Of a stretch of DNA of 64,000 bases, positions 29,321 through 33,586 are shown in pieces. The position numbers were made by a program, and so were the translations under genes. Source of the stretch: Eledone cirrhosa (lineage: Eukaryota); assembly GCA_964016885.1 (NCBI GenBank), contig OZ024743.1, positions 286,502,001 through 286,566,000 of the forward strand. The letters are read 5' to 3'. A model generated the notes under the pieces. The model was not told the origin of the DNA, did not search any database, and saw only the letters and a list, made by a program, of their open reading frames with translations. The first letter of the stretch is position 1. Each line of letters begins with the position of its first letter.

Positions 29321-29740
29321 ATATATATATATATATATATATATATATATATATATATATATATATATATATATATATTTATATATATATTTATATATAT
29401 ATTTATATATATATTTATATATATATTTATATATATATATTATATATATATATTATATATATATATTATATATATATATTATATATATATATTATATATA
29501 TATATTATATATATATATTATATATATATATTATATATTATATATATATATTATATATATATATTATATATATATATTATATATATATATTATATATATA
29601 TATTATATATATATATTATATATATATATTATATATATATATTATATATATATATTATATATATATATTATATATATATATTATATATATATATATATTA
29701 TATATATATATTATATATATATATTATATATATATATATA
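29321..29740. repeat. ~420-bp pure A/T array, (TA)n with periodic TT/TTT interruptions
   Basis: Only A and T; roughly 11-12-nt higher-order unit. Confidence 0.95.
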
Positions 29741-30086
29741 TTATTCAAAATATTAACAAATGAAGATATTCACATAATCAAAATATATGCTTTATTATAT
29801 ATATTTTGAAGGTACTGTGTTGTTTTTTTTCCAGTACGTCCTCGTCAGATAAAATATGATTTGATATATGATATACCTCTACGGTCTTGGTATTTCAATT
29901 CCAGTATTGGCAGTGGATACTGGATTTGAAATATCAAGACCGTAGAGGTATATCATATATCAAATCATATTTTATCTGACGAGGACGTACTGGAAAAAAA
30001 ACAACACAGTACCTTCAAAATATATATAATAAAGCATATATTTTGATTATGTGAATATCTTCATTTGTTAATATTTTGAATAATAT
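29738..30086. mobile_element. Palindromic element A (170-bp arms, 9-nt loop) carrying inverted hammerhead-like motifs with G12>A
   Basis: Arms 29738-29907 and 29917-30086, 2 mismatches seen; plus-strand motif ttttat-CTGACGA(29976)-ggacgtactg..cagtaccttc-AAA-ATATATAT-A-ataaag. Confidence 0.8.
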
Positions 30087-31197
30087 TAAAACTCCAGGAA
30101 TATTTCTTTGTTGAGTGCTTTTAATCTATTGTAAAACTGTATTCATTGAGTAATCAATGAACCATATTAATCTTTGGTCATATATATATATATATACATA
30201 TATATATAATCGTTCATCGAGCAAACCTTGTTAAGGCAGACACCACACACACATATATACATATATATGAATATGTGTGTATATTTCATTATTATATTGT
30301 CCCAAACTCCCCTATGGTCGAGTTAACCTCGAGTGTATTAACTGTTTTTTCTAGCAAATACGTTATTCGCTCACTGTCCACCTTACTACCCTTCTGTGGA
30401 GGTCACAGAATGTGTGACGAAAGAGCTTTGACAAAATAACCATGATAATAAAGCTGAAGTGAAACTCAAATAGTGTATGTGTTGACTCAAATAGTGCATG
30501 TATTGACAACATGACTATCCCCAAATATAACAATAACTGTTTCAACACATGAATTCACATCAAGAATTTTGCAAAACAATTACATACATATGTGTATATA
30601 TATATATATATATATATATATATATACTCTGGTTACCCCCAACTGAACAGGATATTTATATATATATATGATCTTATGAAACATTGAGATGCTAGGTAAT
30701 TTTCTCAACCTGATTAGTTCTATTGTTACTTTGGTATGTATTGTGTGTTGGTTTCGCCTACCACAATGTTCGATTTGTCAAGCTATTTAAATGTATGTTA
30801 TTACTCTAAGGTCCTATCTTATTGAGTGCTTTGCTAACTCATCATTTCATATAAGTAGGCCGAATTTACTTGCAAACCGCCAGAGATTCGATTTTACTGA
30901 TTTCCAATTATATATAGATATATATATATATATACAGACCAGGATTTTTTTCATTCTGATGATTGAAAGCAAAATTGTTTGCTTTTAAGAAACCACTGGT
31001 AAATGGAATAATTGCCTTATGGTGTTTATTACATAACTATACACACACACACACACACACACACACACACACACACACACACACACACACACACACACAC
31101 ACACACACACACACACATACATATATATATATATATATATATATATATATATATATATATATATATATATATATATATATATATATATATATATATG

Positions 31198-31507
31198 TGA
31201 AGGCACATGGCTTAGTGGTTAGAGCATTGGCCTTGCAATCGAAAGGTTGTAAGTTCAATTCTCAGACCGGGTGATGTGTTGTTTCCTTGAGCAAGACACT
31301 TTATTTCACATTCCTCCAGTTTACTCAGCTGGGGTCCATATCATTCCACTGCAAAGTGGCCGTGGAGGTGCCACGGCAAAAAACACCCACCACAAAATGA
31401 CGTTGGTCTTAGGAAGGGCATCCAACTGTAGAAATAAAGCCAGCATCAGTTCCCGTCCCACCTTGCAAGCAAGGAAAAAGCGGACGTCAAATGAAATGAT
31501 GAATGAT
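31198..31507 (+). mobile_element. tRNA-headed SINE with an RTE-type 3' tail, between (TA)n tracts
   Basis: tggcttagtggttagagc A box, gttcaattc B box; tail ggaaaaagcggacgtcaaatgaaatgatg. Confidence 0.8.
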
Positions 31508-32469
31508 ATATATATATGAATATATATATATATATATATATGAATATATATATATATATATATGAATATGTATATATATGAATATATATATATATATATA
31601 TATATGAATATATATATATATGAATATATATATATATATATATATATGAATATATATATATATAAGTGTGTGTGTGTGTGCGTGTGAGTGCGTACTTATG
31701 TCTGTGTGTATGTCTGTTTGTGAATGTGCAGCGCAACAGAATATATGAGTTAGTAGTGTAGGAAAAAGTGTATAGTTTTGTCCCTTTCTCCCCCTTTGTT
31801 TCCGTTTTCTTGTGTCAGTCGGTCAAATAATCATATTAATGCCATCAACATTATTACAAAATACCATTTTGCTTTTTAAAAAATCGATATTTGGCGTGCA
31901 TATAAATGCATGTAATTTGACTACGCATATTCTTCCATAAAGGGAAACCTGAATCCAAGTACACAACCATCTAAGGACGCACGCACTAGTAGATATATCA
32001 GCTTGTGAATGTTTGTACGCGTACGTTTATTTCTATGTGTGTTTTGTTTACCAGTTGTTTAAAAACATAAAGGTATCATTATCGATATATATATATATAT
32101 ATATATATATATATATATATATATATATATATATATATATATATATATATATATGTGTGTGTGTGTGTAAAAAGATGAGTACATGTACGTCAATACTCAT
32201 CTTTTTCCATTCCTCCGAGGGTTCTTAACCCCACTTATCAGGCTAAATAATTTCTTTAATTTCTTTAGTCAAAATACGGCGATAGCTTACATTTCTAATC
32301 ATTTCAAACCCACTCGCTGTTTCGAAAATATTCTTACTTGATATATATATATATATATATATATATATATATATACACACATATTGGTTACCGGCACACA
32401 CGCTTGAACACGCACATCAAATTTTCTAATGATAATCGGAGAGGAAGTCTTTCTACTGGGACACCTTTT

Positions 32470-33092
32470 CTTGTTGTTTTATCCAGGGTAACCCTGAAGC
32501 AGACTTATGACCAAAGGCGATCAGCCATGACCATCCCATATTTTGTTCAGACAGTGAATGTAGAACTAACACCAGTCTATGTATTTTAAAGAAATTATTG
32601 TTTAATATGAGGTAGATTAGATTGTTATTTAAAGCTGATTGAGTGACTGTATATAGGCATTTGTTCTTCAATGAGAGAGAGGAGTTTGCATTTTCAGGTA
32701 ATTTTATCGTTCCAAGTGTTAAAAAATTTTTTGGTTGTTCACTTTGCTTTTCATTTACTAGAGGTCGATTGATAAGCGAAGGACAAATATCATGCACACA
32801 CATATTATAGGAAGACTGACACACAAGAACGAAACATGAAAAAAAGAATAAAATAAACACGAGAAAAATAATCATGGGAAAACTTCAATAAATTATGGTT
32901 TCGTTTTGTCTGTGTGTAACTTTGATATAAATAACAATCAAATCTCCCTCATATTAAACAATACATTCTTTAAAATACATAGACTAGTGTTAGTTCTACA
33001 TTCACTGTCTGAACAAAATATTGGATGATCATGACTCGATCGCCTTTGGTCAAACGTCTGCCTCATTAGGGTTACCATGGACAAAACAACAT
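32470..33092. repeat. Inverted pair of ~140-bp repeat copies (32470-32611 and 32948-33092)
   Basis: atattttgttcagacagtgaatgtagaactaacac versus its exact reverse complement; flanking similarity on both sides. Confidence 0.85.
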
Positions 33093-33252
33093 CGCCGTAT
33101 ATATATATATATATATATATATATATATAGAAATTAAAATTATTGTGAGCAAGAAGCCAACAGTATGCAGAGGTTATATTTAATTTGTTAGGATTCAACA
33201 AGCTTAAAAAATTTTATAATTGATATAAAGCACTCGACAATTAGTGGAGTAA

Positions 33253-33586
33253 ATATACAATACAATATATTAACAAATGGAAACTATATTTATAAAACCA
33301 TATTTATTTTATTATACATATTTCAAGGTCCACCAAGGCAAATTCTGGTGCGCTTTCATCAGATAAAATACAATATAGATTTGTTTTATAAATAAATATT
33401 GACATACTCTGAAAAAAAGACAACCTTAACGGTATGTCAATATTTATTTATAAAACAAATCTGTATTGTATTTTATCTGATGAAAGCGCACCATAATTTG
33501 CCTTGGTGGCCCTTGAAATATGTATAATAAAATAAATATGGTTTTATAAATATAGTTTCCATTTGTTAATATATTGTATTGTATAT
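33253..33586. mobile_element. Palindromic element B (155-bp arms, 24-nt loop) carrying two inverted hammerhead motifs
   Basis: Arms 33253-33407 and 33432-33586, 3 mismatches seen; shares terminal atattaacaaatg and the tattttatCTGANGA context with element A. Confidence 0.85.
33469..33534 (+). ncRNA. Type I hammerhead ribozyme motif, intact core (mirror copy on - strand at about 33305-33370)
   Basis: tattttat-CTGATGA-aagcgcacca(taatttgcct)tggtggccctt-GAA-ATATGTAT-A|ataaaata; perfect 8-bp stem I; predicted cleavage after A33526. Confidence 0.8.

Follow-up and report, generated by a model that had tools for sequence, protein, structure and literature searches.

Published traits of Penelope-like elements (PLEs) of the Hydra clade are insertion at (TA)n targets, RWK and DKT motifs, a CxCX5C linker, and C-terminal CxxC and CxH, CCHH being absent (PMC8557442). 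Craig et al. 2021 list an Octopus family of this clade, report inverted 5'-truncated copies with a tail at one end only, and name the origin of tandem and inverted repeats and the microsatellite bias as open questions for PLEs (PMC8557442). In Schistosoma, dual hammerhead motifs lie ~100-700 bp apart on opposite strands (PMC4209133). With the Poseidon element PAc of Anolis (Frangieh et al. 2024), both strands were cut and extended in vitro, two internal reverse transcriptase (RT) start sites defined the tail, hammerhead cleavage was dispensable for insertion and, for the Anolis PLE, a dimer is predicted (PMC11167929). We examined two palindromes with hammerhead motifs in a 64,000-nucleotide stretch of the Eledone cirrhosa genome (assembly GCA_964016885.1, contig OZ024743.1, positions 286,502,001 to 286,566,000 of the forward strand; hereafter the window, numbered from its first letter). 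Judged from sequence, each arm is almost certainly a pseudo-long terminal repeat (pLTR) of a Hydra-clade Penelope-like retrotransposon, with two related families, F1 (element 1) and F2 (element 2), represented. We consider it reasonably probable that the palindromes are 5'-truncated, head-to-head insertions of such a pLTR, their two complementary DNAs (cDNAs) likely primed at two fixed sites on one uncleaved RNA.

Head-to-head arms ending at two fixed sites

An earlier note on this DNA, made from its letters alone, had described two near-perfect palindromes, and these are real. The inverted arms of element 1 (29738-29907 and 29917-30086) are 170 nt long with 99% identity, and those of element 2 (33253-33407 and 33432-33586) are 155 nt long with 98% identity. 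The bounds originally drawn were too short and symmetric, as both elements are asymmetric and a tail of ~90 nt on a single arm of each had been overlooked (Table 1). The central 'loops' of both palindromes are additional 5' sequence of one arm, with no spacer. Their placement beside (TA)n tracts held for element 1, which is flanked on either side, and only in part for element 2, where the left tract stands 34 nt off the end and the right side has just a short ATATAT.

The ends of the arms were compared in 48 F2 and 47 F1 insertions, all from one contig (C1) and all chosen by their hammerhead motif. For each family the first 30 listed places and 20 further regions were taken, four F2 places of long copies were skipped, and second matches of one insertion were merged, with L136, L143, L156, L170 and L179 dropped as such. 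Counted from the motif GTATGT, 3' ends fall at two fixed sites that are followed by TA runs: site A at +146 in F2 and +139 in F1, and site B at +239 in F2 and +231 in F1. The source sequence at both sites reads ATAT, a few more bases that are mostly A/T, and then CTCC. An inverted partner lies within 720 nt in 62 of the 95 insertions, and the remaining 33 are without a close partner. Among the 62 pairs we found 48 of type A+B, one A+A, no clean B+B and 13 that were left unclassified, four of which fit A+B with a later interruption. Thus 48 of 49 classified pairs are A+B, as are both window elements. In other families 20 of 22 hand-picked head-to-head pairs are A+B, one is interrupted and one continues into the leader of the open reading frame (ORF).

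In 12 of the 48 A+B pairs the B arm starts beyond site A and the arms have no common sequence; because these arms do not overlap, neither was copied from the other. The A arm reaches further 5' in 30 pairs and the B arm in 11, with 6 ties, a count that takes in the window and leaves out L146. Arms within an insertion differ less than shuffled partners in three families (2.9 vs 3.9%, 4.5 vs 8.3% and 0.7 vs 4.5%), and they have in common about four times more non-majority letters than shuffled partners, a level reached in 0 of 2000 shuffles each. The 5' ends of arms fall in a hotspot with a YCA motif, 38-44 nt before GTATGT, in 29 of 85 and 32 of 72 cases, and near the hammerhead cut in 1 of 85 and 0 of 72. 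Short homologies or palindromes occur at many junctions, including a microhomology in element 2. Judged by the self-duplex energy of cDNA 3' ends, the 5' hotspot did not stand out. Taken from sequence, the end pattern fits programmed twin priming on one uncleaved RNA, a reading to which we give moderate preference.

Parent elements and clade assignment

The earlier note had suspected a link to Penelope, and this is borne out by long copies in which the arms are continuous with ORFs for RT and GIY-YIG endonuclease. Upstream of the arm these copies have an AT-rich untranslated region (UTR) of ~1.2 kb and then the ORF. The F2 copy in L095 runs from a 5' pLTR through tail, ORF and a 1.17 kb UTR to a second pLTR, and has a truncated inverted copy at its 5' end; a 522-aa RT-endonuclease frame is present in L077. 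Among F1 copies, L091 and L248 have endonuclease and RT frames ahead of the UTR, and L033 has pLTR, tail and ORF start. The tail is thus the leader that separates the pLTR from the start codon. As the arms are pLTRs of these ORF-bearing elements, the proposal of a separate ORF-less, non-autonomous family fails, and a strand-symmetric replication RNA is not supported, the inversion points being variable as well.

A third and very abundant relative, F4, has an intact 800-aa ORF (L365:1292-3691) within a complete inverted-pLTR structure. This ORF has 46% identity to the F2 frame, and its predicted structure (made with 95 of 150 listed homologues; predicted local distance difference test score, pLDDT, 89) gives telomerase reverse transcriptase TERT 3du5 as best match (E 2e-7). 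An Asn-rich disordered linker is found in the F4 ORF and F1 frames. Among Atlas neighbours of the F2 frame, RVT_1 and GIY-YIG appear at 0.97; Pfam on homologues gave RVT_1 or GIY-YIG below threshold in 5 of 23. For proteins of this genome a PDB sequence search returned no match, and a profile search gave RT matches at E 0.9 only.

The YRDD and [IV]Y..Y[VIF]G motifs are present in F2, F4 and F1 frames. The RW motif is kept with a variable third residue (RLRWR in F2, RLRWT in F4, RLRWC in one F1 copy), DKT stands in place of DKG in all three families, and the N-terminal GxKF/Y is not present in the F1, F2 and F4 frames examined. The F2 endonuclease has a CNCRNKSNC (CxCX5C) linker, one Cys in the GIY-YIG core, and CSLC plus CKH, a layout repeated in F1 and F4. 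CCHH is absent from the F1, F2 and F4 endonucleases examined; with this motif and the CX2-5CxxC linker both lacking, the Neptune/Nematis clade was rejected. The pLTRs are inverted with a one-sided tail (L095, L365 and the 48 A+B pairs), which is the PLE arrangement. At ~2.2-2.4 kb of ORF plus UTR and pLTR, the elements come to ~3.5-4 kb and exceed the <3 kb that describes, without diagnosing, the Hydra clade. From the motifs we assign them to this clade; the families are new, and both their clade and their arrangement are known.

Several neighbouring loci involve other PLEs. The RT in L092 was rejected as F1's own, as it belongs to another Hydra-type family, and no F1 arm occurs at 29 of 30 loci of that RT in fetched DNA. 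At L092:5073-7710, F1 UTR and pLTR are joined inverted to this RT region, either as a cross-family junction or as a nested insertion. A further Hydra-type family (L217, L221, L234) has a divergent hammerhead-like leader ~400 nt upstream of the ORF (CTGAAGA ... ATCGAATAC) with no canonical GAAA core. Several PLE clades are present in this genome: adjoining a Hydra-type copy in L216 is a PLE-type RT with a GTAMG...APTYAN signature, which we take to be Neptune-like.

Hammerhead motifs

The CTGANGA cores of the four arms lie at 29976(+), 29848(-), 33477(+) and 33362(-). Each arm has a type I layout with stem I (TTTTAT/ATAAA(A/G)), CTGANGA, stem II, G/A-AA, an 8-nt self-complementary stem III and an AUA site. 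Stems I, II and III were recovered as first described, type I with a palindromic stem III, and the predicted cut of element 2 after A33526 was reproduced. Rfam models returned no hammerhead, neither at the gathering score nor at E<=10. The hammerhead of the element 2 right arm is predicted to cleave, likely as a dimer. In ViennaRNA the monomer hammerhead is not the minimum fold (-4.0 vs -8.5 kcal/mol). Both element 1 hammerheads have A for the catalytic G12 and from this broken core are predicted to be inactive; G occupies the position in 68 of 71 F1 arms, a set picked with a G-containing pattern.

The suggestion that structure was kept over sequence, including a C-C mismatch at position 4 of stem II, is also upheld. 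This position is paired in 0 of 60 distinct stem types, and in a second set in 1 of 16 types, being nearly always C-C or C-T. Positions 1, 2, 3, 5 and 6 of stem II are paired in 75 of 80 cells at loci chosen by the clan pattern (shuffled mean 66.8, reached in 0 of 5000 shuffles). In a 12-row alignment, 96% of cells are paired (0 of 500 shuffles, kinship ignored, with stems I and III partly fixed by the search pattern), and two-sided changes are seen in 5 of 6 stem II pairs and one stem III pair.

Genomic copies, looked for as the earlier note had advised, are plentiful. An exact 29-nt motif of F2 occurs 1,025 times and an exact 27-nt motif of F1 1,147 times, and a clan-wide pattern with stem II left free has 39,530 matches in the genome, against 0 for the reversed control pattern, so the motifs are not due to chance. 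Among the first 100 places listed for F1, and likewise for F2, close pairs (<300 nt) run minus then plus. One same-strand close pair was found, 200 nt apart and made of two different variants.

In F1 and F2 pLTRs a splice-donor-like GTATGT follows the 5' hotspot by 38-44 nt and precedes the hammerhead core by 30-45 nt. In the window it is found at 33432-33437, and the element 1 copy reads GTATAT at 29948-29953. GTATGT is absent in F4, and no conserved acceptor was found. The Penelope of D. virilis has a splice donor 46 nt after its start and an internal promoter (PMC2377424). By analogy, the ribozyme may sit in a 5' intron and be retained by unspliced RNA only. No RNA record was listed for the sequence. 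A 132-nt skip, present at high depth in contigs of three runs of one sample, did not prove to be a spliced family in the genome (five unrelated deletions). Given the internal promoter of D. virilis, arms that keep the hotspot would more likely be transcribed outward as single sense ribozymes. Silencing of the ribozyme by itself is predicted for read-through transcripts alone; transcripts begun at the central 5' hotspot would run outward with one sense ribozyme each.

Alternative origins of the palindromes

In one reading, close to that of the earlier note, the palindromes would be a non-autonomous element, like a miniature inverted-repeat transposable element (MITE) or a retrozyme, mobile as a fold-back unit and with a ribozyme that silences itself. 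It is true that the majority of sampled copies consist of the pLTR alone, that the whole elements as RNA are each predicted to form one hairpin burying both ribozymes (-279 and -235 kcal/mol), and that 3 of 10 short F4 pairs share one junction, at the 5' hotspot. The ends and centre expected to be constant in such a unit are, however, variable. Paired motifs are spaced from ~110 nt to several kb, inversion points range from the 5' hotspot to >1 kb within the element, the element 2 junction has a single occurrence in the 3 Gb genome with <=1 mismatch allowed, and neither window junction is covered by any other scored match (40 of 408 and 40 of 1,483 candidates scored). The ends are asymmetric, and the arms run on into UTR and ORF in long copies. 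For F1 and F2 this origin is largely refuted and, in our estimate, very improbable. A MITE or fold-back DNA element was likewise rejected, as identical termini and a constant interior are replaced by asymmetric A/B ends and variable, unique junctions. Inverted repeats next to microsatellites are difficult to assemble, and the palindromes might be assembly artefacts; we give this almost no credence, as the arms of a palindrome differ at 2-3 positions, the same end asymmetry recurs at 48 loci, and junctions have microhomologies or extra bases. It is also unlikely that the two arms derive from two separate RNA molecules or from two insertions in succession, of which the later one went into the first pLTR or next to it. 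A PLE protein is able to nick its own pLTR (PMC11167929), the inverted fusion in L092 crosses families, and solo A and solo B copies exist, yet such events should often give A+A and B+B, which make up 1 of 49 pairs, and arms are more alike within than between insertions.

The same elements could acquire an inverted arm if a single nascent strand primed itself or switched template, by fold-back and possibly with an antisense template, a model published for head-to-head structures of rotifer PLEs (PMC3846280). The short palindromes and microhomologies at many junctions and the variants common to both arms of an insertion are in keeping with it. The 12 pairs without overlap, however, would be unaccounted for unless deletions came later; the shorter-tailed A arm is the one that more often reaches further 5', element 1 included; and the model gives no ground for a second arm that ends at a second fixed site with its own AT-rich motif and CTCC. 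We regard this route as rather doubtful and prefer priming of two cDNAs at two sites of one RNA. Several points weigh against that preference as well. The sample comes from one contig and was picked by motif, and the end classes were tallied by hand, automatic classifiers disagreeing at several loci through false matches in TA-rich sequence (for example L146). L169 is A+A and L327 perhaps an interrupted B+B. Arm similarity could stem from gene conversion within the palindrome, and non-overlapping arms could stem from later one-sided deletion. The junction common to the short F4 pairs belongs here too, as does the lack of any Pfam match for proteins of this genome. An extra G stands before the 5' hotspot, where the UTR has C, in F4 arms of L348, L349, L353 and L355, and may have been copied from the RNA cap; a possible cap-derived G, in 17 of 45 cases vs 16% background, is weak and in F1 and F2 confounded by the inverted arm.

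Under priming at two sites, the RT-endonuclease of the element would nick each strand of a TA-rich target, whose free TA 3' ends would anneal to AUAU at sites A and B of one uncleaved RNA. Both cDNAs would extend toward the 5' end of the RNA (probably where transcription starts), with B displacing A in the overlap, and the cDNA 3' ends would join head to head via short homologies. If both cDNAs got as far as the 5' end, the product would be a palindrome tailed on one side; a B cDNA halting before site A would give arms without overlap. The hammerhead, for which a dimer is predicted to be necessary, would be carried along with the pLTR, and its cleavage is likely no part of insertion. Extended to the clade, we lean slightly towards Hydra-clade Penelopes integrating by programmed twin priming, with each (TA)n nick at its own AUAU site on one RNA and the ribozyme possibly in a 5' intron. 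If true, this would explain the long-puzzling inverted pLTRs and one-sided tail of Penelope-like elements, and this genome, in which ~40,000 ends bear a ribozyme and an 800-aa ORF is intact, would record the insertion reaction at scale. Thousands of such hairpins could, we infer, feed double-stranded RNA and genome instability.

Features of the window

Coordinates of both elements are given in Table 1. Three further minimal hammerhead-like motifs (CTGANGA, stem, GAAACG) belong to other repeat families and lie at 34691(+), 34930(-) and 23004(-), with 6, 11 and 6 matches among fetched loci. The sequence at 31197-31500 belongs to an abundant repeat (109 matches among loci) that begins like a tRNA (Rfam tRNA, below threshold at E 0.23) and is probably a short interspersed element. 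The segments 213-1251(+), 6094-6678(-) and 11039-12127(-) presumably comprise remains of RT frames of the long interspersed element type and a frame resembling a hAT-type transposase.

Table 1. Parts of elements 1 and 2 and of the adjacent TA tracts, in window coordinates
Feature	Position	Strand	Basis
Degenerate (TA)n tract into which element 1 likely inserted	29320..29737	.	sequence
Element 1 (F1) left arm: pLTR between the 5' hotspot (-39, counted from GTATGT) and 3' end site A (+139)	29738..29915	-	
Element 1 left-arm type I hammerhead motif; G12 -> A at 29807, predicted inactive	29790..29854	-	
Element 1 (F1) right arm: pLTR from -31 via tail to 3' end site B (+231)	29917..30180	+	
Element 1 right-arm type I hammerhead motif; stem III AUAUAUAU, G12 -> A at 30017, predicted inactive	29970..30034	+	
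Element 1 tail, ~92 nt (5' leader ahead of ORF in full-length F1; L033), then (TA)n	30087..30180	+	
(TA)n tract left of element 2; the intervening 34-nt piece is a weak match to two other loci	33098..33129	.	
Element 2 (F2) left arm: pLTR from ~-26 via tail to site B; last 3 nt GGT common to right arm	33164..33433	-	
Element 2 tail, ~90 nt (5' leader ahead of F2 ORF)	33164..33252	-	
Element 2 left-arm type I hammerhead motif with intact core and one disrupted stem II pair (33329)	33305..33370	-	
Element 2 (F2) right arm: pLTR between -1 (G|GTATGT, resembling a splice donor) and site A	33431..33586	+	
Element 2 right-arm type I hammerhead motif, intact; 8-bp stem I and stem III AUAUGUAU	33469..33534	+	

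Comparison with known systems

Truncated inverted Penelope ends with hammerheads are a known object, and the value of the present set is mechanistic. The near-strict A+B rule yields a clear-cut prediction for work in vitro, and this genome supplies young intact enzyme copies together with tens of thousands of natural insertion products. Neither the A+B rule nor programmed twin priming for PLEs was found in any title or abstract, in a search that left most subscription papers, such as the 2005-2006 PLE reviews, outside its reach. The novelty proposed in the earlier note extends to F1 and F2 as families; opposite-strand hammerhead pairs and inverted pLTRs had already been published (PMC4209133; PMC8557442).

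The closest relatives are the Hydra-clade PLEs with a C-terminal endonuclease (EN+; including Hydra-1_Obim and Penelope-13_HM), which like F1 and F2 have a single RT-GIY-YIG ORF, the same motif set and (TA)n targets (PMC8557442). A sense type I hammerhead near the 3' end is another feature in common, and Penelope-13_HM, like the window elements, has a 5'-truncated inverted copy with a hammerhead on both strands (PMC8557442 File S2). The families here differ in the hammerhead itself, by eye unlike that of Hydra-1_Obim, in a ~1.2-kb 3' UTR that takes them beyond the usual <3 kb, in a tail of ~90 nt vs 30-40 in the described elements, and in the ~40,000 hammerhead motifs of one genome (PMC8557442). 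With the PLE hammerheads of Cervera and De la Pena 2014 they share the type I fold in pLTRs, a palindromic helix III thought to be dimeric, and mostly truncated copies; stem I is longer here (6-8 bp), stem III is an 8-nt palindrome, position 4 of stem II has a conserved C-C or C-U mismatch, and there is no consistent extra base before 10.1 (PMC4209133).

PAc resembles our families in two internal start sites that define the tail and in an AT-rich target, but it starts in an AC-rich loop without target homology, whereas both sites here are AUAU and match the TA target (PMC11167929). In the parts of the PAc paper examined, the two start sites are not tied to the two arms of inverted insertions (PMC11167929). 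Non-LTR retrozymes are likewise short, ORF-less, PLE-derived repeats with type I hammerheads, but they form head-to-tail tandem arrays, whereas the close pairs here face each other head-to-head and run on into autonomous elements (bioRxiv 10.64898/2026.07.22.740005). Assignment of F1 and F2 to non-LTR retrozymes was rejected, as their close pairs run minus then plus rather than as head-to-tail tandem units. In L1 twin priming, reportedly described by Ostertag and Kazazian in 2001, two target nicks are said to prime two cDNAs on one RNA and to yield a 5' inversion, with the second primer at variable internal sites and the pieces non-overlapping. Compared with that process, the insertions examined here have a fixed second site, and their arms often overlap into palindromes.

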